Positions 19,370 through 53,112 are shown, counted from the stretch's first letter. The stretch: DNA of 61,851 nucleotides from Oscillospiraceae bacterium (GCA_015064005.1 SVTA01000001.1:1-61851); one strand, 5' to 3'. The notes: generated from the letters alone by a model not told the origin. Program-made: numbers and translations.

Positions 19370-19490
19370 CGGTATGGAAACAAGATGGCTGTATCACACA
19401 AGTGAGACCTTTCCCAAATTGGTAGAAGAAGCAAAGGGCGTGTGCGTCATCCCCATGGGTTGCTCTGAAAAGCACGGCCTGCACCTCCCC
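19304..19490 (+). repeat. junction repeat copy 1 (3' end of paralog 1 + TAACGGT + 5' end of paralog 2)
   Basis: TTCAAGGTCTTCAAGGAGGACGAAAACGTCCT.AAATGGCA.CAAGAAATGCA.AA.GG.TGGTAACGGTATGGAAACAAGATGGCT... recurs at about 90% identity at all three junctions. Confidence 0.8.
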
Positions 19491-20264
19491 CTCGGTACCG
19501 ACTGCTTTGAGGCGGAGGGCACGGTTCTGGAGGCTGCAAAGCTGGAAACGGTGTGCATTTTCCCCACCTTTGTCTTTGGCGATTATCCCATCGCCTCCCC
19601 CATCAAGCCGGAGGGCTCGGTGCCGCCCGGCACCATCACCCTGCCCGTAGAAACCGAAATGCTCCTCCTCGAGCAGCTCTGCGAGCAGATCTCCCGCAAC
19701 GGTATGAAAAAAATACTCATTGCCAACGCCCACGGCGGCAACAGCCCGTGGCTTTCCACCTTCCTGCGGAAGATGTACAACAAAAAGCACGACTTCGTCT
19801 GCGCGGTGTACGGCTGTCGCTCCAGTCAATCCACCAAGCGGCTGTGTGAGCATCTGCAGGAGCACGGGCGCGGCTCGGTTCCCTATCTCACCACCGCCGA
19901 CGAGGACTATCTGCTGGAGTTCCACGCCACCCCAAAGGTGACCGGCCACGCCTGCATCGGCGAGAGTGCCGTGACCATGGGCGTCTATCCCGAAACGGTG
20001 CACCTTGACCGTCTCGGCATCGAAAGCGGTCTGCCCACCCACGTGGCGGATTACCTGAAGGACGCGGGCATCCAGATCGCCGACTACGGCTGGACCCAGC
20101 AATACCCCAACAACTACAGCGGTCACGATCCCCTGGGGCTGACCGAAACCATCGGAAAAGCCGCGCTCTGGATCCAGGCGCGCTATATGGCACAGGCCTT
20201 CAAGGTCTTCAAGGAGGACGAAAACGTCCTCAAATGGCATCAAGAAATGCAAAAAGGCTGGTAA
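19374..20264 (+). CDS. creatininase-family amidohydrolase, paralog 2
   Basis: ATG 19374 lies 4 nt after the paralog 1 stop. SEKHGLHLPLGTD, NAHGGN, GHACIGES. Confidence 0.85.
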   Translation: METRWLYHTSETFPKLVEEAKGVCVIPMGCSEKHGLHLPLGTDCFEAEGTVLEAAKLETVCIFPTFVFGDYPIASPIKPEGSVPPGTITLPVETEMLLLEQLCEQISRNGMKKILIANAHGGNSPWLSTFLRKMYNKKHDFVCAVYGCRSSQSTKRLCEHLQEHGRGSVPYLTTADEDYLLEFHATPKVTGHACIGESAVTMGVYPETVHLDRLGIESGLPTHVADYLKDAGIQIADYGWTQQYPNNYSGHDPLGLTETIGKAALWIQARYMAQAFKVFKEDENVLKWHQEMQKGW

Positions 20265-20385
20265 CGGTATGGAAACAAGATGGCTTTATCATACAAGCGA
20301 GACCTTCCCCACGCTGGTGGAGGAATCGAAGGGCGTTTGCGTCATCCCCATGGGATGCGTGGAAAAGCACGGTCTGCATCTGCCC
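20199..20385 (+). repeat. junction repeat copy 2
   Basis: Same ~187-bp block spanning the paralog 2/3 junction. Confidence 0.8.
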
Positions 20386-21141
20386 CTGGGGCAGGATATC
20401 ATCCAGGCCACTCACATCACATATATGGCATCACAGCTGGAAACGGTATGCGTTTTCCCGGATTTCACCTTCGGTGATTACTGCAACGCCGCCCCCGGTC
20501 AGCCCGCAGGCACCATCACTCTGCCTGTGGAGACCGAAATGCTGCTCCTCGAGCAGCTCTGCGAGCAGATCTCTCGCAACGGTATGAAAAAGATCCTCAT
20601 TCTCAACGCCCACGGCGGCAACAAGACCTGGCTTTCCACCTTCCTGCGGAAGATGTATAACACGAAGCACGATTTCGTGATGGGCGTCATTTTCGTAGAT
20701 CTGCCCGCGCCCCACGGTATGGCGGAAACGTTGCTCCAAAAGGGCAGCGGCGCGATCCCCGAGCTGACCGTCGAGGATGAGGCCATTCTCCTCCGTCATC
20801 ACGAGGAAAATATGAAGCTGGGTCACGCCTGCTTTGGCGAGACCGCCTTTATGATGGGCATTGCCCCCCAGGCCGTGCATCTTGACCGTCTCGGCATCGA
20901 GAGCGGGCTTTCTACACACAAAGCCGACTACTTGAAGAAGGCCGGCTTGGAGATCATGGCGGGCGGCTGGGATATCAACTACCCCAACAACTACGACGGC
21001 GACGACCCCGTGGATTGCAACGAGCGCATTGGCAAGGCCGCGCTTCGAATCGAGGCCGAGCGCGTCGCCCACGCCTTCAAGGTTTTCAAGGAGGATGAAA
21101 ACGTCCTCAAATGGCATCAAGAAATGCAGAAAGGGTGGTAA
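20269..21141 (+). CDS. creatininase-family amidohydrolase, paralog 3
   Basis: 4-nt gap from paralog 2. EKHGLHLPLGQD, NAHGGN, GHACFGET. Confidence 0.85.
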   Translation: METRWLYHTSETFPTLVEESKGVCVIPMGCVEKHGLHLPLGQDIIQATHITYMASQLETVCVFPDFTFGDYCNAAPGQPAGTITLPVETEMLLLEQLCEQISRNGMKKILILNAHGGNKTWLSTFLRKMYNTKHDFVMGVIFVDLPAPHGMAETLLQKGSGAIPELTVEDEAILLRHHEENMKLGHACFGETAFMMGIAPQAVHLDRLGIESGLSTHKADYLKKAGLEIMAGGWDINYPNNYDGDDPVDCNERIGKAALRIEAERVAHAFKVFKEDENVLKWHQEMQKGW

Positions 21142-21262
21142 CGGTATGGAAACAAGATGGCTTTATCATACAAGCGAGACCTTTCCCTCCCTTGTAGAAG
21201 AAGCGAAGGGCGTGTGCGTCATCCCCATGGGATGCGTGGAAAAGCATGGTCTGCATCTGCCT
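21076..21262 (+). repeat. junction repeat copy 3
   Basis: Same ~187-bp block spanning the paralog 3/4 junction. The 3' half recurs again at 21955-22021. Confidence 0.8.
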
Positions 21263-22021
21263 CTTGGCGCCGATATCATGGAGGCAAGCGCCATCGTCTA
21301 TGAGGCCTCCAAATTAGAGACGGCTTGCGTTTTTCCCGATTTCACCTTTGGTGATTACTGCAACGCCGCCCCCGGTCAGCCCGCAGGCACCATCACGCTG
21401 CCCTTAGAAACCGAAACACTGCTACTTGAGCAGCTTTGCGAGCAGATCTCTCGCAACGGCTGCAAAAAAATTCTGATTTGCAACGCTCACGGTGGCAATA
21501 AAGTCTGGCTCTCTACATTTCTCCGCAAGCTTGCCAACAAGAAGCGGGATTTCGTCTGCGCCGTCTGCACGCTCCCCTTCAGCTCCACTCACAAGATTTT
21601 GGCGGAGCAGCTACTGGAAAAGGGAAGTGGCGCGGTTCCCGAATTATCCGCAGAGGATGAAGCTTATCTGTTGGATTTTTACAATCAGGGCAAAACAGCG
21701 GGACATGCCTGCATCAGCGAAACCGCCCTTATCATGGCCATTGCCCCCGAAGCCGTTCATCTTGATCGACTCGGCATCGAGAGCGGACTTTCCGCTCACA
21801 AGACCGATTATCTGAATGATGTCGGCATCCAAATTGTCAACGGTGGCTGGGACATCAATTATCCCAACAGCTACGAGGGGCACGATCCCGTGGATTGCAA
21901 CGAGCGCATCGGCCGCGCAGCGCTTCGTGTGGCGGCGGAAAAGCTGGCAAGAGCGATCAAAGTCTATAAGGAGGACGAAAACGTCCTCAAATGGCATCAA
22001 GAAATGCAGAAGGGGTGGTAA
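21146..22021 (+). CDS. creatininase-family amidohydrolase, paralog 4
   Basis: ATG 21146 lies 4 nt after the paralog 3 stop. EKHGLHLPLGAD, NAHGGN, GHACISET. Confidence 0.85.
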   Translation: METRWLYHTSETFPSLVEEAKGVCVIPMGCVEKHGLHLPLGADIMEASAIVYEASKLETACVFPDFTFGDYCNAAPGQPAGTITLPLETETLLLEQLCEQISRNGCKKILICNAHGGNKVWLSTFLRKLANKKRDFVCAVCTLPFSSTHKILAEQLLEKGSGAVPELSAEDEAYLLDFYNQGKTAGHACISETALIMAIAPEAVHLDRLGIESGLSAHKTDYLNDVGIQIVNGGWDINYPNSYEGHDPVDCNERIGRAALRVAAEKLARAIKVYKEDENVLKWHQEMQKGW

Positions 22022-22022
22022 C

Positions 22023-23231
22023 ATGTATAAAACGCTTGACGCGCTGATGCAGGCGGCAGGCTGCACCGTCTATCCCGCCCGTTGGAACGAGATTTTCGAC
22101 ACCGTTATGGGGGATTTTGACAAAAACGGCTGTTTTTTGACCGATCCTGCCTATTACGATGAGATCCACGAGAAATACGGTGTCTTGAACAAGCACCTTG
22201 ACCTTTATAAGGAGGCGGCCGCGGCCGTCGGCAAACGAGAGCCGCTTGCCCGCCTGCTGGCACTGCTGGCGGCAACCATTCGGGATCGCCAGCACGTAAA
22301 GGCGGATCTGAAGGAATTTAAGGCACCAAAATCCCCGGAGGGTACCCATGATCTCGCCATTGATATGCTGACGGCACTGCCCCTGTTTGCGGCACTGCCC
22401 TACACGGCCAAAAAGATCGCCCCCCGCAATCTGCCGAAATACATTTCCGATTATATCCTTCAAAACCCGGAAAAGTGCGTGGATTACCATAAAAATCGCT
22501 ACGGCGTACCGGGCTGCAATTTGATCGGCTGGTATCAGTTGGCTATTGAGGGCGAGCTCTTTCGCGTGGGGCGGCTGGAAATTCAGATCTGTGCTCAATT
22601 TAAGGGGGGAACGGTATTTGAAAACGCCAAAGGCGAGCGCGTCACGCTTTGCCACGGCAGGCTCCTTCATCGGGAGGGTTTTCCCCTTGGTTCCTACGGC
22701 TATGAGGACGAGGAGGGCGCTTTTGAGGCCAGCATCACCGAGACCGACGAGGCCTTTGTCGGTTATCCCTACAAGGCAGACGGATACATTGAAACGCATA
22801 CCGTTTGCCTACTAAAATCCGAATGGCGCCCCATTCTCACCGACGGCGACCCTGTGGTTTCCCTGCACATTCCCGCCGGCGGCGGCCTCACCCCCGAGAT
22901 CGTGGACGAGACCCTGGCCGAGGCCAAAAAGGTGCTTGTCACCTATTACCCCGATTTCGAGTACAAGGCCTTCGTGTGCAGTAGCTGGATGATGGATCCG
23001 CAGCTGGTGGAGCTGCTCGGGCCCGATGCCAACATCTCCAAGTTCTGCAGCCGCTTCACCCCCATGGCGCAGAAGAGCGTCGGCAACGGTGTGATGAACT
23101 TCATCTTCTTTGATCCCGACCGAAGAATCCCCCTCTCCGACCTGCCCGAGGACACCCGCTTCCAGCGCGCGCTGAAACAGCATTATCTGAACGGTAAGGT
23201 CATCTATGAAATGTTCGGTTATTTCATTTAA
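22023..23231 (+). CDS. GNAT-like acyltransferase domain protein (uncharacterised two-domain family)
   Basis: ATG 22023 lies 1 nt after the paralog 4 stop; 402 aa. The C-terminal ...PAGGGLTPE...CSSWMMDPQL...GNGVMNFIFF resembles 'acyltransferase domain-containing' proteins of Clostridia. This is from memory and needs an HMM check. Confidence 0.6.
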   Translation: MYKTLDALMQAAGCTVYPARWNEIFDTVMGDFDKNGCFLTDPAYYDEIHEKYGVLNKHLDLYKEAAAAVGKREPLARLLALLAATIRDRQHVKADLKEFKAPKSPEGTHDLAIDMLTALPLFAALPYTAKKIAPRNLPKYISDYILQNPEKCVDYHKNRYGVPGCNLIGWYQLAIEGELFRVGRLEIQICAQFKGGTVFENAKGERVTLCHGRLLHREGFPLGSYGYEDEEGAFEASITETDEAFVGYPYKADGYIETHTVCLLKSEWRPILTDGDPVVSLHIPAGGGLTPEIVDETLAEAKKVLVTYYPDFEYKAFVCSSWMMDPQLVELLGPDANISKFCSRFTPMAQKSVGNGVMNFIFFDPDRRIPLSDLPEDTRFQRALKQHYLNGKVIYEMFGYFI

Positions 23232-38104: not shown

Positions 38105-38392
38105 TATCTCCTTTTCATTTGAAACAAAATAAAAAATCCCCTTGCCAAAGCAAGAGGACGCGCCAGGGGCACGCGGTACCACCTCTGTTTACCCGCCCCT
38201 CGCGGAGTGGGCCTCATGCAGCTTTTGCAAGCCGCGCTCGCGTAACGGGCGACACCGGCGTAGCCTACAGGGCGAAAACGCCGTTCGGTACGCGACTCGC
38301 GAAGGTATTCGGCAGGGGCACCCTCCGTCTTGCACCATCCGACGGCTCTCTGTGCGGCACCTTACTGCTTACTCTTTTCGGTCACAGTCTTT
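38105..38392 (-). promoter_or_regulatory. T-box riboswitch leader (tyrosine) upstream of tyrS
   Basis: The minus strand carries an AGAGAG stem-I element, GAATAC with the TAC Tyr specifier, the T-box AGAGGTGGTACCGCGTG, and the terminator CCTCTTGC-tttg-GCAAGGGG followed by ATTTTTTATTTT. Confidence 0.85.
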
Positions 38393-38398
38393 CTTCAT

Positions 38399-42900: not shown

Positions 42901-42993
42901 GCGCTACGCTGCATTTTTGTCGTTTTGTTTTCGATTTATCTGCTTTGGCGCCCAATTCTGTCAAAAACAACGGATGAAAGCCCCTCCTGCAGC

Positions 42994-43025
42994 AAAAATC
43001 CCCCGCCGACCAAGGGTCGGCGGGG
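42994..43025 (-). terminator. terminator closing the phage-like head operon
   Basis: On the minus strand: CCCCGCCGACC-cttg-GGTCGGCGGGG followed by GATTTTT. Confidence 0.8.
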
Positions 43026-43052
43026 AGCCCCATCGGGAGTCTGCTTAACACG

Positions 43053-43445
43053 TTAACCGTCAGCGCGCTCGGGCTTCGGTTCACCCTTTCCGGCGGCATC
43101 CGCGATGATCTTGGCATTCACCACCTTGGAAAAGGCGATGTCCTTTTCCACAGCCGCCATCAAAGCCTCCTCCTCAAAGGGCACATCCAGCGTAGCACTG
43201 AGAGTACGCAAACGGGAAAGCACGTAATTCAACTTTTCCGCGGCGGAGTAATGAGAAAATCCTTCCGCCTCCGTCTCAAACTCTCTGGCCGCCTCCAGCA
43301 GCTGCAGCCATTTTTGCAAGGACGCGGCCCGATCTCCGCGCCACGCACGCACCGCGGAAGCGCAAAGCAGTACCAGATTCAAAAGTACGGTCAGCACCAG
43401 CACGGCAAGATCAAAATGCTCCATGACGAAATCGAACACAGTCAT
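43053..43445 (-). CDS. phage membrane protein, possibly LL-H-type holin-like
   Basis: An N-terminal TM helix (LAVLVLTVLLNLVLLCA) is followed by a helical soluble tail. The holin call rests on weak recollection of the Holin_LLH architecture. Confidence 0.4.
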   Translation of the reverse strand: MTVFDFVMEHFDLAVLVLTVLLNLVLLCASAVRAWRGDRAASLQKWLQLLEAAREFETEAEGFSHYSAAEKLNYVLSRLRTLSATLDVPFEEEALMAAVEKDIAFSKVVNAKIIADAAGKGEPKPERADG

Positions 43446-43457
43446 ACCACACCTCCG

Positions 43458-43868
43458 TTACATACTGCGCCGACGGCTTTCGTCCGCAAAACGCCCGGCC
43501 TCTCTGTCCATCAGCTCCGCCGTGCGCAGATCCTGGATCTCGGACTGATCCAGCAGCAGCGCAAACTTACGGCGGATCCGTGTCCACACGCCACGTCGGA
43601 TGACGCAGTTCTTGCCGTTAATGGCCACATACACGTCGTCCTTGTATTTTTCGTTGTCTCGAAAAAGCTTGACCTCCACGTATTCGTTGAGATACGCCTC
43701 CTCTGCCTGCAAAAAGCGCTGCAGGCGCTCGGCGTTGCCGTTTTTTCGCTCCTTCTCGTCTTGGGCAGCTCGCAGGGCCGCCAGCTGCTCCTCATAGGAG
43801 GCGCGCAGCGCCTCCATCTCCTTTTTCAGCGCAGCAACGCTACCGCTGTCCTTATGCTCGTTTCCCAT
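43458..43868 (-). CDS. phage hypothetical protein (coiled-coil N-terminus)
   Basis: 136 aa, co-directional, immediately downstream of the capsid gene. No family recognised. Confidence 0.6.
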   Translation of the reverse strand: MGNEHKDSGSVAALKKEMEALRASYEEQLAALRAAQDEKERKNGNAERLQRFLQAEEAYLNEYVEVKLFRDNEKYKDDVYVAINGKNCVIRRGVWTRIRRKFALLLDQSEIQDLRTAELMDREAGRFADESRRRSM

Positions 43869-43940
43869 ATCGATACTATCCTTTCCGTCTGCAATACAGA
43901 CCGTTTTCTCTCCCCTTCAGGGTACTTCATTGAATTTCCC

Positions 43941-43968
43941 GCGAAAGAGGAGCAAGCTCCTCTTTCGC
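43941..43968. other. hairpin immediately downstream of the capsid gene
   Basis: GCGAAAGAGGAGC-aa-GCTCCTCTTTCGC. On the coding (minus) strand it lacks a U tract, so it may be an attenuator or an RNA-stability element. Confidence 0.45.
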
Positions 43969-43987
43969 TTTTTCAGCAAATGATCTC

Positions 43988-45379
43988 TCAGTTGGCGCCG
44001 CCCTCAAAGGTAGAGGCGGTCTCAATACGAACCATGAATGCCTCTACCAAACGAGCTGCGGTCTTGGTGGCCTTCCAGCCCACGGTAGCGCGCTGGTTGA
44101 GGGGGTCAGCCGTGCCGGCAGAGCCCAGCTGCTTCACGATGTGCTGCAGGCCGCCGCCCACCAGCTCGGTGGTGCCATAGGCGTTGTCACCAAAGACCAG
44201 CGTGGCGTACACGTCGCGGCCGTGCATACCTGCCTCACCGGGATAGAGCAGATCCTCCTCCGCAATGTGCGCATACTCCTTGTAGTTGGAAGCGGCGTCC
44301 ATCAGCGGGCGATCCAGATAGAGATGATGCTCCTCCTCCTCTCCGCCGATGGTCACGCCCACCACCTTGGCGTACTGATAGCTGCCGTTAGAGGCATCGT
44401 AGTACACGATGGAGCGGCCTACCATATCCTTCTCCACCACGTGACCGAAAAGGCCGTTGTGCAACATCAGGCGGTAGCAGGAGCCGATACCACAACCCTC
44501 GCTCACCTGGCCGGGTGTGTTCAGAATGGTCATGCTCTCCTCAAGGCAATGCAGAACACGGGCGTCGGAGGCAAGATCGGGGGCGTGGAACACCTTGGCC
44601 TCGGTGGACTCCACAAAGCGAACCCCCTCCAGCATACCGATCTCACCTTCGTAAAGGTCACGGGGATCGGCGTACTGATGAGGATACTTCCAGTTGGGGT
44701 CGTTGGTCAGGTCGTAGGCACAGTCGGGGTGAATGATGCAGGCGTAGGCGCCGTTGATCTTTTCCGCGTTCTGATTCTTGAGGAAGCGCACGGCGCGCTT
44801 GATGCAGTCCACGGTCATGTAATGGTTGCCGGTAGCCTCGCCACCTACCAGCAGATGGCGAGCGGAAACCGCATTTTCGCCATACTGTACATTGGTACCG
44901 CCGCACAGCACCTCACGGGTGATGGTATCCAGCGTTCTGCCGGCCTGGGAGCCGAGGAGCTTTGTGGCCATCACCAGATTGTTGTCAATGGCCGTAAGCA
45001 GCAGCAGATCAGAAAACTCCACGTAGCCGCCGTACTGACGGACGGTGGCCTCCACCACACCCATATTGAGGGACTGGCCGGTGGGGGTCACGCCCTCGGA
45101 AAGCGCTGCGGTCAGCTTGGGCAGCGGATCGTACTTGCGGAACTGAATGGTCTTGCCCCCGTTTTTAGGGATAGAAACCTTCTGGGCGAACTGATCGTGA
45201 ATGAGGTTGGGCTCGGCGTTGTCGATGAGATAGTCCGCGTAGTAGGTACGCATCTCGGCCGAAAGGCCGCCGTCCTCATAAGGGGTAACCGTGCCGGTGG
45301 TGGCGTCGGTGTAGCCCTCAGTGGTGTTGACGTTTTCACTGACGCCAAACAGCGTCAGATCAAGGGTGAAATTCTTCAT
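43988..45379 (-). CDS. major capsid protein, N4-gp56-like family
   Basis: ATG 45379 follows AAGGAAG. YADYLIDNAEPNLIHDQFAQKVSIPKNGGKTIQFRKYDPLPK matches the N-terminal signature I associate with N4-gp56-family capsids. Confidence 0.8.
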   Translation of the reverse strand: MKNFTLDLTLFGVSENVNTTEGYTDATTGTVTPYEDGGLSAEMRTYYADYLIDNAEPNLIHDQFAQKVSIPKNGGKTIQFRKYDPLPKLTAALSEGVTPTGQSLNMGVVEATVRQYGGYVEFSDLLLLTAIDNNLVMATKLLGSQAGRTLDTITREVLCGGTNVQYGENAVSARHLLVGGEATGNHYMTVDCIKRAVRFLKNQNAEKINGAYACIIHPDCAYDLTNDPNWKYPHQYADPRDLYEGEIGMLEGVRFVESTEAKVFHAPDLASDARVLHCLEESMTILNTPGQVSEGCGIGSCYRLMLHNGLFGHVVEKDMVGRSIVYYDASNGSYQYAKVVGVTIGGEEEEHHLYLDRPLMDAASNYKEYAHIAEEDLLYPGEAGMHGRDVYATLVFGDNAYGTTELVGGGLQHIVKQLGSAGTADPLNQRATVGWKATKTAARLVEAFMVRIETASTFEGGAN

Positions 45380-45428
45380 GCTTTCTTCTTCCTTTCTTAA
45401 TTTTGGTGCAAAAAGGCCGAAAACGGTG

Positions 45429-46040
45429 TCAGATCCTGATTTTTTCTCCCTTGGAGGCGCGGCGCGCCATTTCGGCGCGTTCCGCCCGGGAAAGCGCTTT
45501 TGCCGCATTGTCAAAGCGGATGGAAACGCCGGGCACAGTACCGTTCTCCGCAGGGCGCAGGCCCTTGGCGCGGATGCTGGAAAGAACGGCAAGCTCCGTC
45601 TCCCTTTTGGCATTCTCCACCGCCGTGCGAAGCTGATCCTCCGCCTCGGCTGTCGCCTTTTTTCGCACCGTTTCGGGGTTATTTTCCCCTATAGCCGCAA
45701 TCAGCGCCGCAGTATCCGCGGTGCCGTACGCGCTGGCCGCAGCCTCAACCACGGCACGGTAGCGTTCAAGCTCCTCCATTTTCCCCTTCTGCTCCTTGAA
45801 GCGCCGGTTAAAGGTTTCCTGAAAATACGCTGTGAAGAGATCCTTATATTCTCCCTCCATCAGCGCACGGAATTGCTCCCTCCGGCCTTCCTTGTGGCTC
45901 GACTCCCCGGCGGCAGGAGTCTTATCTTCCGTCGCGCCCGTATCTATTGTCTCCGGGGTGGTGAGAGACGCTGCATTGGATTCACCCGCAAGCTCCGTGC
46001 CAAATTGGCACAGAAAGCTCCATTGACTCTTATGATTCAT
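45429..46040 (-). CDS. phage scaffolding protein
   Basis: GAGGAG RBS. A helical, charged 203-aa protein between the protease-like and capsid genes. Confidence 0.7.
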   Translation of the reverse strand: MNHKSQWSFLCQFGTELAGESNAASLTTPETIDTGATEDKTPAAGESSHKEGRREQFRALMEGEYKDLFTAYFQETFNRRFKEQKGKMEELERYRAVVEAAASAYGTADTAALIAAIGENNPETVRKKATAEAEDQLRTAVENAKRETELAVLSSIRAKGLRPAENGTVPGVSIRFDNAAKALSRAERAEMARRASKGEKIRI

Positions 46041-46146
46041 AGCTCCTCTTTCTTCTCAGTCAGGGCAAGGAGCCGCAGTCTCTTTCTCTGTTGCCGGCTC
46101 GCGCCCCTGCCCCTTTCAAATTGGTTGACGTCGCCGTGCGCTCTGT

Positions 46147-46455
46147 TCAGACGCACACGGCCGTATAAAGCTGCACGTTGTGGGGATAGCTGCGGGCGAT
46201 GGCCGAAAGACCCCGCACCGTCAGATCAAATGCAGCGCCAAGCCCTCCGCGGCAGGAAAGGAAAAATCTTCCCGGCGCTGAGTCGGTACGCAGGTGGCGA
46301 CAGTTACCGCACTCTCTTGCATAAAGCAGCAAAGAGCCCACCAGCGCAGATACACCGGCGCAGACGATATCAGCCCCATCCGGGCCATATCCGGCGTGAC
46401 CCTCCACGTAAAGGCGGCAGCGGGTGCCCCGTTTTTCTACATAGACCGCGATCAT
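46147..46455 (-). CDS. Prp-like cysteine protease (ribosomal-processing protease family, phage-encoded)
   Basis: ATG 46455 overlaps the portal stop (ATGA). GHAGYGPDGADIVCAGVSAL is the Prp/DUF464 His-Cys signature. Confidence 0.75.
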   Translation of the reverse strand: MIAVYVEKRGTRCRLYVEGHAGYGPDGADIVCAGVSALVGSLLLYARECGNCRHLRTDSAPGRFFLSCRGGLGAAFDLTVRGLSAIARSYPHNVQLYTAVCV

Positions 46456-48167
46456 ACGGCACTCCTGCTCTCCGCTGCTTCGCGCATGCGCCAAGCGCCC
46501 TTCATAGCGGCAGCCACACCGACAGCAGGTGCACCCTCCGTCTCCGGCGCTGCGGTGGCGGTGTGGGTACCGTCCCCCTCTCTCAAATAGCGCTCGATCC
46601 GCTGACGAATGCGATCCACACCCGGAAAATCCATACCGTCCAGCAGGATTTTCGCCGCGGCGGCATTTTCAGGATCAAAAACGCCCATCTTGTAAAGCTC
46701 CTTCAGCGTTTCGTTATAAGAGTAGCGGGTGTAGGGATCCTGGCGCTCCGAGCGCACGTCGATATCAAAAATCGGACGTCTGGAAAGCGGTGTGCCATCG
46801 GGCAAGCTGCCCGTGATCTGTTCCTTGATCCGCTCGTTGCTCCACTCCAGATATCTGCTGCCATCCTCTCCGAGGATGCGAAAGCACCGATTTTCGTCGT
46901 AAAACTGACGCACACACTCCACGATCAAACGCACCACCCGCACAAAGGCGCGGTGGGATGCAGCGACGATGTCGCGCATACTCTTATTGCCCGCCTCCTG
47001 CAGCGCGGCAATGGCCGCCGCCGCGCGCACACCGGAGTCGGCGGAGCCTTGCAGCACGTCACGGTTGGCGGTGGTTTCCTTCAGCTCGCGCACCTTGGCA
47101 TTTTTCAGCTCCAGCCAGATGGGATCCAGCTTTTCCACGGTGATCTGCCGCAGCCGCTCCTCTCCGAGATCACCCTCCACCTCTACAATGCGCCGACCGA
47201 GGTCCACAAACTGCGCCTCGTCCACGCCGGTATTGGTCTTGCAGAAATATCGCACACGGGTGGCCCAATCCATATATTCCATCAGATTGCGATCCATGCG
47301 GTCAATGTATCCCTGCGAATCCCGCCCCACGGCGATGACGCCGAAGCCAAGGCAGGTGTGCGCCAGCGGATACAACACATCCAGCACGAAGGGATACTGC
47401 CCGTGCTCGTAAAAGCCGGCAGCATAGGCAGGATCGTTTTCCGAAGAAAACAATACCGTTTCCCCGGTAAATTTGCAATAATGCAGAATCGTACGCCCGC
47501 CGGGCACCTGCTTTTTGTAGTACCAGTCCACCACCAGCACGTCATCCGAGCCAAGCCCGCCGTATGCGAAGAGGGACAGATCCGTGCCCTCTCCGGTGCG
47601 TTTGAATTGGGGATATTCCCGGGCCAGCTCTGCCGCATCGCGGCGCTCCACCACGTATACCGAGGAGGAATGCTGAATATCCGACACCCCCGGCTGCCAA
47701 TAGAGCTTCATCAGATCTACGGGCCGCACATCAATGTCACCAAGGCCATTCTCCAGGGCGGTGTTGAAAAATACGCCCCATCCGCAAACGCCGTGCTTCA
47801 GCTTGTACCACATGTTTTCGGAGTAAGCATCCGAAAAATCTCCACGCTCCAGAATAACGGGCAGAATGGCAGAAAGCGCTGCCGCATCCTCCTCATCTCC
47901 GGGCTCTCGCGGTAAACAAACCGCTGAGGGGATATTTTCCATCAGATCGGCGTGCTTCTGCATCAGCGCATTGAACAACCACGCCGAGGTGGGAGCAATG
48001 TCCTCTCCCTCACTGTTGCGGTGATTCTTGGGTGCTACCCGCATCCGATACCAGTTTTCCTCATCCCGCGTACGGGCGTTGAAGCCTTCCCGTTCCCGAC
48101 GCCATGCGGTCAGCTCCTCCATGGCGGCTCGCACAGCCGCCTTGTCGATCACATTCACTTCTTCCAT
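46452..48167 (-). CDS. phage portal protein
   Basis: A 571-aa protein directly after TerL and before protease/scaffold/capsid. The call rests on size and position only. Confidence 0.75.
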   Translation of the reverse strand: MEEVNVIDKAAVRAAMEELTAWRREREGFNARTRDEENWYRMRVAPKNHRNSEGEDIAPTSAWLFNALMQKHADLMENIPSAVCLPREPGDEEDAAALSAILPVILERGDFSDAYSENMWYKLKHGVCGWGVFFNTALENGLGDIDVRPVDLMKLYWQPGVSDIQHSSSVYVVERRDAAELAREYPQFKRTGEGTDLSLFAYGGLGSDDVLVVDWYYKKQVPGGRTILHYCKFTGETVLFSSENDPAYAAGFYEHGQYPFVLDVLYPLAHTCLGFGVIAVGRDSQGYIDRMDRNLMEYMDWATRVRYFCKTNTGVDEAQFVDLGRRIVEVEGDLGEERLRQITVEKLDPIWLELKNAKVRELKETTANRDVLQGSADSGVRAAAAIAALQEAGNKSMRDIVAASHRAFVRVVRLIVECVRQFYDENRCFRILGEDGSRYLEWSNERIKEQITGSLPDGTPLSRRPIFDIDVRSERQDPYTRYSYNETLKELYKMGVFDPENAAAAKILLDGMDFPGVDRIRQRIERYLREGDGTHTATAAPETEGAPAVGVAAAMKGAWRMREAAESRSAV

Positions 48168-48189
48168 GATTCTCCTTTCAGGGTCTTCC

Positions 48190-49605
48190 CTATTTGTAAT
48201 TTCTTTCCTGCCTCCTTGTCACGTAGGTGACAGGCTTTTCGGAAAGAGGGTCAAAAACCCGCACCGTTTGGGGGGATTTTTCTCTTTCAGGCAGCATTGG
48301 CACCAGCATGCAAAGATAACGGGTCTCATCCGCAATGTGGTCCTCCAGCTCGGAATCCACATCCTCCGGTTGGGTGCGGCTGTACTGCAGCGTGGGCAAC
48401 GTGCGCAAAAATTCTCTGCAGGTGCGGAACACGTAGAGCATCGGCACGCCGTTTCGGTCAAAGGCCAAGCGGTTGTGCAGCTGCATCCAGCCCGCGATCC
48501 GTCGGTTATCCCCCCGCTCAAAATACACACCGCAGCGCTCTGCCGTTTCGGCGATCGCCTCGCCGCGAGAGGCATCCCAAATGGCGGGATCCGCCACGCC
48601 GGTGATCCGCCTGCCCCGCAGGTAAGGGTGCTCGCGCTCCAGCCGCGCGATCTCCCGAAAGATCTCCTCCGGCGTCCAGCGCACGCCTACGTTGGCACAG
48701 TTCTGCGCACAGCCGTACAGCTCCAGCACGCGGTACAGCCGTCCATCACCGTCCTTGGCCCACCATCCCACGGAAAAGGGCTTTGCATAGCCAAAATCGA
48801 AGGAACGGTACATCCGCCAATGCTCCGGCGGCTGAAAGGGAGCGATCACGTGGGTAAAGTGCCGATCCTCATAATGCGCAGGGTCATTGCGCAGCTCCTC
48901 AAAGACCTGCCCTTCATACACATTCCAATCGCCGTAGAGATGCGCCCGACGCTTGTGCTCCGGCAATGCCTCCAGGCGGTGCACGTAATCGGGATCCGCC
49001 TCCATCAGCACGCGGTTGTCATATACCAGCGCCGGTATAAAGGCATAATCCTCCTCGCGCTCCCCCTCCCGATAGCACCGATCCACGAACAGCCGCTTGA
49101 TATAGGCGTGCCCGACACCGCCGGGGTTGCAGGTGAAATAAATGCGAGGGCGAAAATCCTGCTTTGTGGTGCGCAGCGAGGTGCTGATGAAGGTGATCCA
49201 CTCCTCCTTGAAGTGCGTGGCCTCCTCAAAGCCGATCACGTCGTATTCCGCGCCCTGATACTGCAGAAGGTCACTATCCGCGTCGCAATAGCCCAGCGTC
49301 AGGCGGGAGCCATTGGGAAAAAGAAAGCTGCGCTCCTCTTTTTTATAAACGGCGTATCCGAACAGCTCGCTTTGCAGCGGCAACAGATGATTTTCCCGCA
49401 GCTCCTGCAGCGTGCGGCGTAACAGCAGCAGTCGCAGACAGGGGGTGCGCATGGCCAGCAGCACCATTTTACGGCGCATAGCCCAGGATTTTCCGCCGCC
49501 TCTGGCGCCGCCGTAGGCTACGTATCGCGCCTTTGAAAGGAAAAATTCCTGCTGGCGGGGACTGGGAGCCTCCGTACGCAACCGTTGTATGATCAGCGGC
49601 TCCAT
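48190..49605 (-). CDS. phage terminase large subunit
   Basis: Walker A YGGARGGGKSW, Walker B-like VIGFEEATHF, C-terminal nuclease-like DHIADETRY. Confidence 0.9.
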   Translation of the reverse strand: MEPLIIQRLRTEAPSPRQQEFFLSKARYVAYGGARGGGKSWAMRRKMVLLAMRTPCLRLLLLRRTLQELRENHLLPLQSELFGYAVYKKEERSFLFPNGSRLTLGYCDADSDLLQYQGAEYDVIGFEEATHFKEEWITFISTSLRTTKQDFRPRIYFTCNPGGVGHAYIKRLFVDRCYREGEREEDYAFIPALVYDNRVLMEADPDYVHRLEALPEHKRRAHLYGDWNVYEGQVFEELRNDPAHYEDRHFTHVIAPFQPPEHWRMYRSFDFGYAKPFSVGWWAKDGDGRLYRVLELYGCAQNCANVGVRWTPEEIFREIARLEREHPYLRGRRITGVADPAIWDASRGEAIAETAERCGVYFERGDNRRIAGWMQLHNRLAFDRNGVPMLYVFRTCREFLRTLPTLQYSRTQPEDVDSELEDHIADETRYLCMLVPMLPEREKSPQTVRVFDPLSEKPVTYVTRRQERNYK

Positions 49606-49838
49606 TCCTCCAACACCCCCTCAAAGCGTAATGTAATCGGCGCATCCTGCTTCGCCTCTCCCGCTGCCCCCTTGCCGAGAACGCGATCCAGCACACTTTC
49701 TGCCGCCTTCATCCGCAGCTCCGGCTTTTGCGTTTCATCCTGCATCAGGGAAAGCAACACCTCCATGGCATCCTCGGCGCGAGAGGAAAGCTGCTCCCGC
49801 AGCTTTTCCTGCGCCGGCTTTTTACGTCTGGTCGCCAT
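49593..49838 (-). CDS. putative terminase small subunit
   Basis: ATG 49838 follows GGAGGAGGG; 81 aa. RMKAAESVLDRVLGKG resembles the AAxxLLDRGxGKP motif of small terminases. The gene overlaps the TerL start. Confidence 0.5.
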   Translation of the reverse strand: MATRRKKPAQEKLREQLSSRAEDAMEVLLSLMQDETQKPELRMKAAESVLDRVLGKGAAGEAKQDAPITLRFEGVLEEWSR

Positions 49839-50184
49839 TGCCCTCCTCCGCGGAGTCGGCGGCCGGCACCAGCAGCAGCTCAAACGCTTCCTCGCTCTCC
49901 GTGCAGCGTGCCCGCCATCTGCCAAGCGCCTCCCGCACGGCCTGCTTGCCGATTCGAACCTCCACCTCCGCTTTCCTTTTTTCTACCGACACGCCCTCGC
50001 CGCATCCGGCAAGAACGTCCAGCATCACCGAAAGCAAACTCAGCATCAGCTCCCGCTCCTCCTCGCGCCCCTCCAGCAGCTCACGCTGCTTTTCGATGTA
50101 GCGCTCCCGCCACGCGATCATATACTCGAAGCGACGGCGCTCTTCCTCCCGCAGACCTGCCGCGACCTTCTTTTCTCTTTTCAT
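49822..50184 (-). CDS. phage hypothetical protein (highly charged E/R-rich)
   Basis: 120 aa, co-directional, overlaps both neighbours. Confidence 0.55.
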   Translation of the reverse strand: MKREKKVAAGLREEERRRFEYMIAWRERYIEKQRELLEGREEERELMLSLLSVMLDVLAGCGEGVSVEKRKAEVEVRIGKQAVREALGRWRARCTESEEAFELLLVPAADSAEEGNGDQT

Positions 50185-50378
50185 TTCAGACTCCTTTCAT
50201 AGTAACCGTCCAGCGCGCACTTCAAGGGGCAGCGCCGATAGGCATCCGGATGGGCGCAGTAGCCATACACCACATCGCGACGTGCTTTTTTATCGGGGAA
50301 CCGCAATTCCCCGCATTCGCAATGAGTCACGCCCTCCTTTTCATACAGATAGTAGGGACACATACCTTCCATGGGCAT
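50181..50378 (-). CDS. phage small Cys-rich protein
   Basis: ATG 50378 follows GAGGAGG; 65 aa with 7 Cys (CPYY...HCECG...C...CPLKC). It is the first gene of the leftward operon. Confidence 0.55.
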   Translation of the reverse strand: MPMEGMCPYYLYEKEGVTHCECGELRFPDKKARRDVVYGYCAHPDAYRRCPLKCALDGYYERSLK

Positions 50379-50424
50379 ATCACATCCTCCTCGTCTTATT
50401 TTTAGGACGACGATTCTCCGAAGC

Positions 50425-50598
50425 ATTCGTCCCCTTACTGGAACGGATTTGGGAAGCAAAGCAATTTTGCCCCGATAACGCATACTTTTTTAAACCATTC
50501 GTCCCGTTTTTGGAACGACTATAGCATACACCATCCTGCTGCATTTGTCAAGGACTAAAATATGAACAAATTGTAAATTCGTCACATTTTTGGAACGA
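50425..50598. promoter_or_regulatory. three direct copies of a 22-bp operator-like motif ATTCGTC-N8-TGGAACG(A/G)
   Basis: O1 at 50425-50446: ATTCGTCCCCTTACTGGAACGG. O2 at 50497-50518: ATTCGTCCCGTTTTTGGAACGA. O3 at 50577-50598: ATTCGTCACATTTTTGGAACGA. Confidence 0.65.
50523..50551 (-). promoter_or_regulatory. leftward promoter driving the packaging/head operon
   Basis: On the minus strand: TTGACA-N17-TATGCT. The predicted transcription start falls inside operator copy O2. Confidence 0.5.
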
Positions 50599-50602
50599 AC
50601 GC

Positions 50603-50631
50603 TTGACACCAGATCCCATTTTTGATACAAT
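50603..50631 (+). promoter_or_regulatory. rightward promoter driving XRE/ImmA-like/glpK
   Basis: TTGACA-N17-TACAAT, with a TG extension. Operator copy O3 abuts the -35. Confidence 0.55.
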
Positions 50632-50776
50632 AGAATTGAAGAAAATCCGCCAAAAAGCCGATAAATCGACTGCGCCTCACCGAAGGGGGCGCCTGCGGCG
50701 GTAACCCTCCCGCCCGTTTTCGGCGGGAAGAAAAGGAAGCGTCGCCCTCTCACGGCGCAGAAAGGCAGTATCCACT

Positions 50777-51085
50777 ATGACCGTTTCGGATCGCATCCGC
50801 GCACAAATGACCCTACTGGGGCTCTCCTACGGAGAGCTTGCCGCTGCCACCGGCCTTGCCAAATCCGCCATCCATCGCTACGCCACCGGGCAAACCGACA
50901 AGGTGCCTACCGAGGCGCTGGAAAAGCTGGCGCACGCCCTTGGCGTGACTCCCGCTTATCTCACCGGATGGGAAGAACAGCCACACACGCTGGCCGCCCA
51001 CTTTGAGGGCGAGGAATTCTCTGAGGAGGAGCTGCGGGAAATCGAAGATTTCGTGCGCTTTGTCAAATCCAAACGCCGTCCTTGA
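50777..51085 (+). CDS. XRE-family HTH regulator (phage repressor-like)
   Basis: IRAQMTLLGLSYGELAAATGLAKSAIHRYATGQTDKVP is an HTH_3 pattern. Confidence 0.85.
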   Translation: MTVSDRIRAQMTLLGLSYGELAAATGLAKSAIHRYATGQTDKVPTEALEKLAHALGVTPAYLTGWEEQPHTLAAHFEGEEFSEEELREIEDFVRFVKSKRRP

Positions 51086-51106
51086 CCTTGAAGCAAAGGA
51101 GGCCTT

Positions 51107-51622
51107 ATGTACGAAAAATTATTGGATGAAGCCCTTGAAAACGGCATCACCGTCATCGAAAAATACCCCTTTCACTCCCCCCGCATCCGCGGGCTATGCT
51201 GCGATGATACCATCGCCCTCAGCGAACAGATCGACACCACCGCCGAGCGCACCGTCATCCTCTGCGAGGAGCTCTGTCACGCCACCGACTCCTTTGGCAA
51301 TATCCTGCACGATTCCCGAGCAGAGCACCGTACCAGACAGCGGATCTTTGACCGCCTCATCAGCCCGGAGCGCCTTGCCAAGGCCGCGCTGGCCGGCTGT
51401 CGTGAGGCGTGGGAGTTTGCCGATTGGTTGGGCGTGCCCCCAGCCTTCTTCAACGAGGCCATGGAGCACTACAAGGCCCGCTTTGGCGTGATGACCAAGC
51501 TCCGCCTGCCGGAGGGACTGTTCCTGCTGCAATTTGAGCCCACGCTACGGCTGCGCCGTGCCGTGCGCGCCACCGACAAAAAGCGGCTTTCCGACCGCAC
51601 TCAAAAGGAGATGTGCCCATGA
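51107..51622 (+). CDS. ImmA/IrrE-like (DUF955-type) protein with non-canonical EELCH motif
   Basis: [59 protein letters not shown] follows the ImmA layout, but HExxH is replaced by EELCH. Confidence 0.6.
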
Positions 51623-53112
51623 AGCAATTTCTGTTAGCCTTAGATCAAGGCACCACCAGCTCCCGCGCCATCATCTTTGACCGCGCAGGCAACACCGTGG
51701 CCAAGGCAGCCCGAGAATTCACTCAATATTTCCCCCACGAGGGCTGGGTGGAGCACGACGCCACCGAAATTTTTGCAAGTCAGCTGGCCACAGCCAAGGA
51801 AGCCCTGAGCAAAGCCGGCCTGTCTGCCGCCGACATTGCCGCCATTGGCATCACCAATCAGCGGGAAACCACTATCGTTTGGGAGAAGAACACCGGCAAG
51901 CCCATCTGCCCCGCCATCGTGTGGCAATGCCGCCGTACGGAGGAGCTTTGCGCCGAGCTGCGGCGCAACGGCATGGCCGATCTGATCCGGGAGAAAACCG
52001 GACTTGCCATCGATCCTTATTTTTCTGCCACCAAGCTCCGCTGGATCCTGCAACATACCCCCGGCGCCCGGGAGCGGGCAGAGCGCGGGGAGCTCCTGTT
52101 CGGCACAGTGGATTGCTGGCTGATCTACAATCTCACCGAGGGGCGTGTGCATGCCACCGATCCTTCTAACGCCGCCCGCACCATGCTTTTCAACATTCAC
52201 ACCCTCGCATGGGACGAGGAGCTGCTGCGCCTCTTTGATATTCCGGCTGCCATGCTGCCGGAGGTGCGCCCCTCTGCCGGCAGCTTTGGTGAAACCACGT
52301 TGCTCGGCCACGCCATTCCCATTTCCGGCGTAGCAGGCGATCAACAGGCAGCGCTCTTCGGCCAATGCTGCTTTGAGCCGGGCAGCGTTAAAAATACATA
52401 CGGCACCGGCGGCTTTCTGTTGATGAACACCGGCACGCATCCCGTTGCCTCCAAGGGCGGACTGCTCACCACCGTGGGTTGGCAGATCGGCAATGAGGTC
52501 AACTACGTGCTGGAGGGGTCAGTATTCATCTGCGGCGCTGCCATCCAATGGCTGCGCGACGGTCTTGGCATTCTGCCCACCGCAGCGGAAAGCGAGGCAC
52601 TGGCCGCATCGGTGCCCGATACCGGCGGCGTATACTTTGTACCTGCTTTTGTGGGTCTTGGTACGCCTTACTGGGATCCTCGTGCCCGCGGCACCATCGT
52701 GGGGCTTTCCCGCGGCACCACCAGAGCGCATTTGGTGCGAGCTACACTGGAGGCAATGGCCTATCAGACCGTGGACGTGGTGGATGCCATGCGGCAGGAT
52801 GCCGGCCTTGACGTGCCGCTGCTGCGGGTGGACGGTGGCGCCACCGCCAACAACCTGCTTCTTACCCTGCAGAGCGATTTGCTGGGTCTGCCCATTCTGC
52901 GCCCCGCCACAGTGGAAACCACCGCGCTCGGCGCCGCTTATCTTGCAGGTCTTGCCGCTGGCGTTTTCGAGAGCAAGGCTGAAATCGCCGCTCTTGCCCG
53001 TGCCGACCGCATGTTTGAGCCCACACTTCCCGCCGCCGACCGCGCTGCCCGTCTTGCTCAATGGCGCAGGGCTGTAAAAGCTGCCATCTACTTCGGCAGC
53101 GCCGAAATATAA
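51619..53112 (+). CDS. glpK: glycerol kinase
   Basis: ATG 51619 lies 8 nt after AAGGAG and overlaps the ImmA-like stop (ATGA). [16 protein letters not shown] and the FGGY kinase pattern extend throughout. Confidence 0.95.

Follow-up and report, generated by a model that had tools for sequence, protein, structure and literature searches.

The first report of an element resembling a gene transfer agent (GTA) in the gut microbiome was that of FpGTA, from Faecalibacterium prausnitzii (Borodovich et al., Nat Commun 2026, PMC12946183; preprint 2024). Its genes were found in Faecalibacterium only; GTA-like packaging was also seen in other Oscillospiraceae, Ruminococcaceae, and Christensenellaceae, without the responsible loci (PMC12946183). 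Here we describe a head-and-packaging operon in a 61,851-nucleotide (nt) stretch of DNA from an Oscillospiraceae bacterium (GCA_015064005.1 SVTA01000001.1:1-61851; Ruminococcaceae/Oscillospiraceae by its NCBI label). We refer to this whole 61.8-kb stretch as the window, and to the operon together with an adjacent XRE/ImmA gene pair (43053-51622) as the island. The island is probably a chromosomally fixed, vertically inherited, podovirus-derived element, or in other words a GTA-like viriform of the FpGTA operon I type, in a reduced form. It is not categorically new, and we class it as a reduced FpGTA variant. It extends this type to a large uncultured clade, with added evidence for vertical inheritance and purifying selection.

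Operon I of FpGTA is 9.6-10.5 kb and has ten open reading frames (ORFs). Their order is a TerS without a DNA-binding domain, TerL, a portal, a protein annotated as Prp, a major capsid protein (MCP) of the N4-gp56 family, a small protein, an adaptor, a tail nozzle, and an abundant TolA-like protein (PMC12946183; RCH50852 to RCH50848 for TerS through the small protein, including RCH50851 for the portal and RCH50849 for the MCP). The adaptor and the tail nozzle were assigned by structure. Operon II, which is unlinked (125 kb away) and 5.5 kb long, has genes for fibres, a receptor-binding protein, a holin, and an endolysin. Of 12 Faecalibacterium strains, 5 were found to have it, and the other 7 have no detectable operon II (PMC12946183). 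FpGTA particles measure ~40 nm, lack a visible tail, and contain ~8.4-8.9 kb of random chromosomal DNA; whether they deliver DNA at all was left open by the authors (PMC12946183).

Comparison with known systems

From TerS through the small protein after the capsid gene, the operon in the window has the same gene order and the same protein families as operon I of FpGTA. The two elements also share the host family (Oscillospiraceae/Ruminococcaceae), a size of roughly 10 genes, podovirus ancestry, the absence of replication and integration genes, and near-ubiquity within the host clade. But where FpGTA continues with the adaptor, the nozzle, and the TolA-like protein, the window's operon (7.3 kb) stops after a small protein (g9) and a holin-like protein (g10), and the adaptor and nozzle that are found at the end of operon I are missing from the window. 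Nothing in the window is comparable to operon II, and a XRE/ImmA switch, which lies beside our operon, is undescribed for FpGTA.

The closest cultured phages are the pageviruses, which are podophages of Bacillus. The late module of Bacillus phage Page is colinear with the operon (TerS, TerL, portal, scaffold, MCP, small proteins, and a large tail or nozzle protein), and the MCPs are 38% identical. Uncultured gut podophages of ~39-42 kb from IMG/VR have MCPs that are ~53% identical, as well as homologs of g1, g9, and two genes that are described below (gX and a nozzle-like gene). Both kinds of phage have tails, tailspikes, and lysis and replication genes in their 39-42 kb, whereas our element corresponds to the head and packaging part only.

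Like RcGTA and other alphaproteobacterial GTAs (Rhodogtaviriformidae), the island is a chromosome-fixed cluster of phage-derived structural genes that appears to be vertically inherited and to co-diverge with its hosts. The likeness would extend to a TerS that is not sequence-specific, to auxiliary genes located elsewhere, and to the lack of self-replication. However, the origins are independent: these GTAs are siphovirus-like, with a full tail in the main cluster, an HK97-type protease instead of Prp, and control by the host regulators CtrA and GafA, while our element lies beside a XRE/ImmA pair. PBSX of Bacillus subtilis is another chromosome-fixed, defective phage-like element of a Firmicute, under the control of an adjacent Xre repressor, and it packages random host DNA (~13 kb). 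Unlike our element, which has no tail genes, PBSX is a ~28-kb myovirus-like tailocin with a complete contractile tail and a lysis cassette.

Phage-inducible chromosomal islands of the capsid-forming kind (cf-PICIs), such as EcCIEDL933, likewise have genes for a small capsid, a portal, a protease, and a terminase of their own and none for a tail, and they release tail-less, DNA-filled capsids, which are reported to dock onto phage tails. However, cf-PICIs are mobile; they package their own genomes with a specific TerS; and they have an integrase, an AlpA-type regulator, a primase-replicase, HNH, and genes for head-tail adaptors and connectors. In our case the locus is immobile and these genes are absent: we found no integrase, AlpA, or primase-replicase in the island or the window, and no match to HNH or head-tail connectors in any island protein. 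SatelliteFinder treats a holin as a forbidden component of cf-PICIs; g10 resembles LL-H holins in its predicted fold, with weak E-values.

An intact operon between serC and glpK

The operon consists of ten uninterrupted, tightly packed ORFs on the minus strand (43053-50378). In order, they encode a Cys-rich protein (g1), g2, a TerS-like protein (g3), TerL, the portal, Prp, a scaffold-like protein, the MCP, g9, and a transmembrane (TM) protein, g10. Every ORF has an ATG start and a GGAGG-type ribosome-binding site in front of it, and an independent gene call on the source contig (70.6 kb, from JGI metagenome 3300031555) gave the same ten products, with the lengths in Table 1. There are ATGA overlaps at g1/g2 and at portal/Prp; the TerS-like and TerL genes overlap by 13 nt, and g2 and the TerS-like gene overlap by 17 nt.

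This locus was brought to our attention by a model's reading of the sequence, which we will call the original prediction. It described ten intact minus-strand genes, coupling of TerS with TerL and of portal with Prp, a strong terminator upstream of the serC promoter, a divergent XRE/ImmA-like switch, and core metabolism on both flanks (serC and glpK). All of this agrees with our results: besides the ORFs, starts, gene call, and overlaps, the terminator has a GC-rich stem and a T-run, the promoter matches the consensus throughout, the regulators have matches to profiles, and the flanking genes were recognised by Pfam. The original prediction also stated that tail, lysin, integrase, and replication genes are lacking. 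That is correct for these four in the window, but because g10 is probably a holin (see below), one lysis-related function may be present in the operon.

Pfam annotation around the island covered ~2.9-61.8 kb of the window, along with individually scanned ORFs at the window's ends, and the flanks turned out to contain host genes only. On one side are ABC transporters, four creatininase paralogs, thrS, ispH-rpsA, cmk, tyrS, prfB, serA, and serC; on the other side are glpK and sugar-transporter genes. In the 62-kb window, we found no genes for integrase, recombinase, replication, tail, or endolysin, no tRNA gene, and no excisionase or att-like repeats. More specifically, integrase, recombinase, AlpA, primase, and HNH are all lacking within ~43 kb upstream or ~10 kb downstream of the island, and no direct repeat of at least 10 nt flanks it. 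The hypothetical proteins elsewhere in the window had no match in PHROG, and when we compared ORFs from 129 related element and phage loci to the window outside the island, there were no homologs except for generic transporter-type matches. On the glpK side there is no room for an attachment site, because the ImmA-like gene ends in a stop codon that overlaps the start of glpK (ATGA), and the Shine-Dalgarno sequence of glpK is inside the ImmA-like ORF (window 51590-51625). This arrangement also implies that glpK may be co-transcribed with the element's regulators, or be read through from them.

Vertical inheritance and purifying selection

We scanned for relatives of the capsid protein in one genome per species (GTDB representatives). 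This yielded 116 relatives, and we analysed the best 80 of the 116 (numbered L001 and so on, together with other loci). Among these 80, 30 have a homolog of g10 downstream of the capsid gene, and we will call these the glpK-linked group. They are metagenome-assembled genomes (MAGs) of uncultured Clostridia, Eubacteriales, and Oscillospiraceae from ruminant, horse, chicken, and human gut. In loci that are long enough, the layout is glpK, ImmA, XRE, g1-g10, a variable region of 0-2.5 kb, serC, serA, and prfB. We saw glpK in 20 of the 30 loci and serC on the far side in 16 of the 30; the others run off the contig or show other host genes there, such as SpoVAD. The adjacency of ImmA and glpK is preserved in 20 of the glpK-linked loci. 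A protein search found thousands of homologs in metagenomes.

Within these loci, the host proteins are 68-98% identical to those of the window, and the island proteins are 30-95% identical. Every island ORF is intact and of near-constant length in all loci from which we could extract it, or 12-28 loci per gene (counting the window). To quantify selection, we compared the window to its closest relative, L001, and computed the ratio of nonsynonymous to synonymous substitutions (dN/dS) by the method of Nei and Gojobori (NG86). The ratios for the island genes range from 0.05 to 0.33 and are comparable to those of host genes (Table 1), and dS is alike as well (0.5-1.6 for island genes and 0.4-1.0 for host genes). 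Furthermore, the combined amino-acid distances for TerL, portal, and MCP are correlated with the distances for glpK (Pearson 0.69, Mantel p=0.0005). When L001 is set aside, the distances from the window to the remaining loci are similar for the module and for glpK (about 0.27-0.34).

Because the module and glpK have diverged together and the dN/dS ratios are low, we conclude that the module has been passed down with the chromosome and that purifying selection has preserved it over a radiation at the level of genus to family. The conserved locus, the intact ORFs, the low dN/dS, and the co-divergence with host genes also indicate that the element is neither a decaying prophage nor a mobile satellite. 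Similarly, in the terms of the definition of GTAs and viriforms (Kogay et al. 2022), the genes for the particle are virus-derived, endogenised, and vertical (given the fixed site and the Mantel test); they are maintained by selection and are not decaying; and there is no capacity for autonomous replication, excision, or self-transmission, given the lack of integrase, excisionase, replication genes, and att-like repeats. Yet the whole element, including its regulators, is 8.57 kb, which is close to the size of an FpGTA headful (8.4-8.9 kb). Judging by size, a single particle could in principle carry all of it, in contrast to classical GTAs.

More broadly, operons like FpGTA I are widespread in uncultured gut and rumen Oscillospiraceae and Clostridia, and one clade has the operon fixed at a single chromosomal site. 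Members of this family are candidate loci for the unexplained packaging signals in Oscillospiraceae, Ruminococcaceae, and Christensenellaceae.

Table 1. Features of the island and its borders, with dN/dS (NG86) between the window and L001. Families were assigned by profile searches against Pfam, PHROG, and NCBIfam. Lengths are in amino acids (aa).
Feature	Length (aa)	Position in window	Strand	Matches or description	dN/dS
ImmA/IrrE-like protein	171	51107..51622	+	phrog_87 metallo-protease at 2.5e-16	0.099
XRE-family repressor	102	50777..51085	+	PF01381, PF13560, PF13443	0.051
Promoter-like site facing XRE/ImmA		50603..50631	+	TTGACA-17-TACAAT with TG, 11/12 match	
Promoter-like site facing structural operon		50523..50551	-	TTGACA-17-TATGCT, 10/12 match	
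Three operator-like repeats, TTCGTCNC-N6-GGAACG		50426-50445, 50498-50517, 50578-50597		imperfect palindrome	
g1, six Cys, first operon gene	65	50181..50378	-	no family match	0.155
g2, charged	120	49822..50184	-	no match in family or PADLOC profiles	0.33
TerS-like protein (g3)	81	49593..49838	-	weak match to TerS profiles	0.19
TerL (g4)	471	48190..49605	-	PF03237, PF04466; phrog_979 at 7e-49	0.058
Portal (g5), P22/podovirus type	571	46452..48167	-	PF16510 P22_portal 5e-26; phrog_156 3e-58	0.061
Prp-type cysteine protease (g6)	102	46147..46455	-	PF04327 5e-13; phrog_4478 2e-15	0.045
Scaffold-like protein (g7)	203	45429..46040	-	phrog_13908 1e-21; between protease and capsid genes	0.19
Major capsid protein (g8), N4-gp56 family	463	43988..45379	-	TIGR04387, phrog_1357 3e-85, PF13252	0.136
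Stem-loop just 3' of capsid gene stop codon		43941..43968		12-bp stem	
g9, always after capsid gene	136	43458..43868	-	phrog_15239 at 4e-21	0.11
g10, N-terminal TM helix, LL-H-type holin candidate	130	43053..43445	-	AlphaFold 2 model and BFVD matches	0.205
Intrinsic terminator closing operon		42990..43026	-	12-bp stem (10 GC pairs), 3-nt loop, ATTTTTG tail	
serC promoter		42900-42872	-	12/12 match to sigma-70 consensus; serC downstream	
Host glpK					0.061
Host serC					0.041
Host ABC permease					0.085

Loss of genes downstream of the capsid gene

In the glpK-linked group, the capsid gene is usually followed by g9, gX (~115 aa, phrog_12105), g10, and gY (~148 aa). In four loci, a ~550-aa protein (gZ, nozzle-like) that weakly matches phrog_511 ("internal virion protein") also comes before serC. 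Among the 25 loci from the group with enough downstream sequence, gX is present in 23, gY in 20, and the large gene in 4. Both g9 and gX are also found in true phage contigs, where gX is directly upstream of the large gene. In position, gX and the large gene match the adaptor and the tail nozzle of FpGTA.

The window and L001 have neither gX nor gY nor the large gene in their islands, and tblastn of all three against the whole window found no trace of them. A scan of metagenomes with an alignment of gX hit six loci, none of them from the source sample, which is uninformative as to a relocated copy. The same layout (g9-g10-serC) is found in L168-L171, which are short contigs from metagenomes that represent diverged members of the window's sub-clade, and another such contig, L167, has an intermediate layout (g9-gX-g10-serC). 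So the stages that we observed are g9-gX-g10-gY-nozzle-serC, g9-gX-g10-serC, and g9-g10-serC. Because the reduced layout recurs in diverged contigs, along with an intermediate, the losses were stepwise and old. And since the low dN/dS was measured between two genomes that are both reduced, selection has continued to act on the remaining genes after gX, gY, and the nozzle were lost. The window's copy is a reduced derivative that is old and selectively maintained. This natural deletion series asks which parts such a particle needs.

In more distant relatives (MCP ~60% identical, with other chromosomal contexts), 24 of 35 loci have a phrog_511-like gene and 8 of 35 have a different ~580-aa gene. 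The operon often ends with a ~110-aa XhlA/"hemolysin" protein (phrog_937; L035:13292-13633 and homologs in 22 loci), a small lysis-associated protein that differs from the holin-like g10 of the glpK-linked group. In one distant sub-group (L067:11864-19960, L038:12703-15571, L076:11978-13171), the capsid gene and g9 are followed by a conserved ~580-aa protein and a Mbeg1-like protein with a lipase fold (PF11187), and L067 additionally encodes a 1700-aa protein with BspA-type leucine-rich repeats. The ~580-aa, Mbeg1-like, and BspA-type proteins may be alternative distal or receptor-binding parts.

Head and packaging proteins

The MCP passes the NCBIfam equivalog TIGR04387 (N4-gp56) with 287 bits, as compared to a cut-off of 60. 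Relative to the MCPs of phage Page and of two IMG/VR phage contigs (L120 and L151), it has an insertion of ~135 aa (residues ~278-415), and a shorter insertion (~100 aa) is found at the same site in more distant elements and in phage contig L104. Sequence searches of the PDB with the MCP, the portal, and the nozzle-like protein gave no match.

The TerS-like protein aligns only with the mid-section of TerS profiles (positions 75-130 of 162 for phrog_641 and positions 195-244 of 443 for phrog_10899). No helix-turn-helix family was detected in it with Pfam, PHROG, or NCBIfam profiles, which should be read with the weakness of the TerS assignment in mind.

The N-terminus of the MCP (window 45340-45379) has a conserved ..(F/L)DLxLFG motif, followed by a small residue, and the N-terminus of the scaffold (window 46000-46040) has a conserved ..LxLFG. 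Prp cleaves the leader off ribosomal protein L27, and in Staphylococcus phage 80alpha the scaffold and capsid proteins lose a similar leader. We take the LFG leaders of the MCP and the scaffold to resemble the L27/Prp cleavage motif and the 80alpha leaders. The element's Prp has a GHAG...VCAGVS stretch, which presumably holds the catalytic His and Cys. Given the leaders on both proteins and this stretch in Prp, it is likely that maturation of the head would depend on the element's own Prp.

A stem-loop lies just past the capsid gene (Table 1), and we suspect from its placement that it is an attenuator or a stabiliser of the mRNA. Bacillus phage Page has an annotated terminator at the equivalent place, which suggests that a stem-loop here is a conserved way to raise the expression of the capsid gene over that of the genes downstream.

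Small proteins

The first gene of the operon, g1, is kept in nearly all of the related elements, and some of the related phage contigs (L151, L114, L117, L165) have it too. The second, g2, is the fastest-evolving gene, and tblastn could recognise it in only 11 of the glpK-linked loci that we compared. g9 is present in all related elements and also in 56 ORFs from IMG/VR viral loci (L103-L161). Its constant place after the capsid gene, in phages and elements alike, suggests a head-associated role. A structural model of g9 from AlphaFold 2 was poor (pLDDT 61) and had no match below E = 0.2 when we used Foldseek to compare it to the PDB and BFVD.

g10 is confined to the glpK-linked group. Its AlphaFold 2 model (pLDDT 79) has an N-terminal TM helix and then a conserved helical domain. 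The best match in BFVD was to an unnamed protein (E = 8.7e-4), and matches that are named "Holin" or "Holin_LLH" had E = 0.08-0.3, with probabilities of 0.8-0.99. From this modelled structure, we consider g10 a probable LL-H-type holin, with moderate confidence.

The original prediction had proposed that annotation of the small proteins by profiles and structures might reveal adaptor, connector, or tail functions. No adaptor or tail identity could be assigned to any of them, and what emerged instead was the holin-like g10. Hidden Markov models built from g1, g2, g3, g9, gX, gY, and g10 had no match among the small proteins of Bacillus phage Page, and the defence models of PADLOC had no match.

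A putative regulatory switch, conserved in relatives

The XRE/ImmA pair is divergent from the operon, and the 398-bp region between g1 and XRE holds both promoter-like sites and three operator-like repeats. The pattern TTCGTCNC-N6-GGAACG matches at just three places in the 61.8-kb window, all of them in this region: one is between the promoters, one is just past the -10 of the operon's promoter, and one is ~50 nt upstream of the start codon of g1. Relatives conserve both the sequence and the placement of the repeats, and L001, L002, L012, L019, L022, and others show the same arrangement. The operon's promoter-like site is conserved in L001, L002, L012, and L019, each with an operator directly downstream. 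XRE itself is the most conserved island protein (80-95% identity across glpK-linked loci).

The natural reading of this arrangement is a switch with a repressor and an anti-repressor, as in ICEBs1 and many Firmicute prophages. The ImmA-like protein has EExxH (LCEELCHA, residues ~53-59) where the canonical HExxH is expected. Because all 21 of the ImmA-like orthologs, counting the window's copy, have EEL[TA]H, this is a trait of the family and not a local mutation. The conservation of the switch and its operators offers a handle for manipulating the element.

How the element might work

We propose that the XRE repressor binds the three operators, which span both divergent promoters, and would keep the operon silent until a signal via the ImmA-like partner lifts repression in a few cells. 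The portal, scaffold, and capsid protein would then form small procapsids, and Prp would trim the ..LFG leaders from the N-termini of the scaffold and capsid protein. TerL might work with a putative, truncated TerS that has no domain for DNA recognition to fill these heads with headfuls of non-specific chromosomal DNA, and the holin-like g10 could contribute to release. As the adaptor-like and nozzle-like genes are absent here, closing of the heads and delivery would rely on genes elsewhere in the genome (compare operon II of FpGTA), or else the particles are truly tail-less.

Several points weigh against our view of the island as a reduced, GTA-like viriform of the FpGTA type. First, formation of particles, their DNA content, and transfer are predictions for this element, and DNA transfer was not shown even for FpGTA (PMC12946183). 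Second, the proposed homology to FpGTA rests on shared families, gene order, and host family, and exact-sequence look-ups of eight related proteins in sequence clusters gave the names of uncultured Clostridia and Oscillospiraceae only. Third, parts are missing: the window lacks gX, gY, the nozzle-like gZ, and any endolysin. Fourth, the matches of g3 to TerS profiles are weak (E about 2e-7 to 1e-4). Fifth, with its canonical HExxH lacking, the protease step of the ImmA-like protein is uncertain, and hence so is the induction step. Finally, dS as computed by NG86 is near saturation for some genes.

Alternative explanations

Another possibility, which we consider doubtful, is that the island, after the stepwise loss of the adaptor-like gene, gY, and the nozzle and with its head and packaging genes still under strong purifying selection, is a minimal GTA that is truly tail-less. 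If this is true, and there is no tail encoded in trans, then the DNA-filled heads would have no injection device, and the cargo might be taken up by natural competence, or the particle might have another role.

It is unlikely that tail-less capsids are finished in trans with adaptors and tails borrowed from co-resident or environmental podophages, in the way that cf-PICI capsids dock onto phage tails. The element would then behave as a satellite and not as a self-sufficient GTA. This would account for the absence of adaptor, nozzle, and tail genes in cis, and the related gut phages of ~39-42 kb, with their homologous g9, gX, and nozzle genes, could supply compatible parts. However, the hallmarks of a satellite (integrase, excision, replication, and a pac-specific TerS) are all absent; what is missing here is precisely the set of genes by which cf-PICIs are defined, those for head-tail adaptors and connectors; and because the locus is fixed and co-diverges with its host, the element itself does not spread.

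We think it quite unlikely that the capsid machinery has been exapted for something other than gene transfer, such as interfering with the assembly or packaging of related podophages, or a programmed release of DNA with lysis. Strong purifying selection that persists after the loss of the parts for closing the head and for delivery would fit with this idea, as would the fact that the authors of the FpGTA study leave DNA delivery open (PMC12946183). But the production of DNA-filled capsids is the simplest reason for keeping the genes for terminase, portal, protease, scaffold, and capsid as a complete set, and we rejected a defence system because nothing matched the PADLOC models.

The original prediction argued that the island is not a decaying remnant, and the comparison of the serC-glpK interval across relatives, which it had suggested, bears this out. 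The module is beside glpK, with serC opposite in about half of the loci, no relative has a full prophage there, and selection is not relaxed. A cryptic prophage on its way to decay, and intact by chance or because it was acquired recently, would explain why gX, gY, and the nozzle were lost though relatives keep them, and why the ancestral tail, lysis, and replication part is gone. We rejected this reading as very improbable: ORFs are intact with conserved lengths in ~25 species, dN/dS is comparable to that of host genes even within the reduced-layout pair, the reduced layout recurs in several diverged lineages, and the regulatory DNA is conserved.

As to the likeness that the original prediction saw to cf-PICIs or to a domesticated GTA-like element, the GTA-like half stands, with the layout of FpGTA and vertical inheritance, and the cf-PICI half does not. 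A mobile phage satellite, of the cf-PICI or another class, with its integrase beyond the sequenced interval, is highly unlikely: the island's resemblance to the hijacking module of a cf-PICI is superficial, and against this reading stand the same site beside glpK in about 30 species, the translational overlap of ImmA with glpK, and the lack of integrase, recombinase, AlpA, primase, HNH, att-like repeats, and tRNA in the surroundings searched. We rejected the cf-PICI reading for the lack of integrase, primase-replicase, HNH, adaptor, and connector genes, and because the locus is not mobile.

Other observations

Two MAGs each have two different members of the element family, on separate contigs: JBGVRH01 (L068 and L074) and JAZOCO01 (L026 and L027). 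These could be real duplications, or strains could be mixed in these bins.

The capsid module is also carried by many short contigs that are filed as viral, including L082-L102 from IMG/VR and MT836150 and MT835662 from GenBank ("Bacteriophage sp.", human faeces, Mexico). Host genes (glpK and serC) are present as well in at least L082 and L084, so some of the "phages" in the databases are probably chromosomal loci of this element family.

Elsewhere in the window, the creatininase family (PF02633) has four paralogs in tandem, which are followed by a GNAT-type gene and lie beside a pair of ABC exporter genes (18494-23231). Upstream of tyrS, on the minus strand, is a T-box leader (38151-38394; Rfam RF00230, 94 bits).

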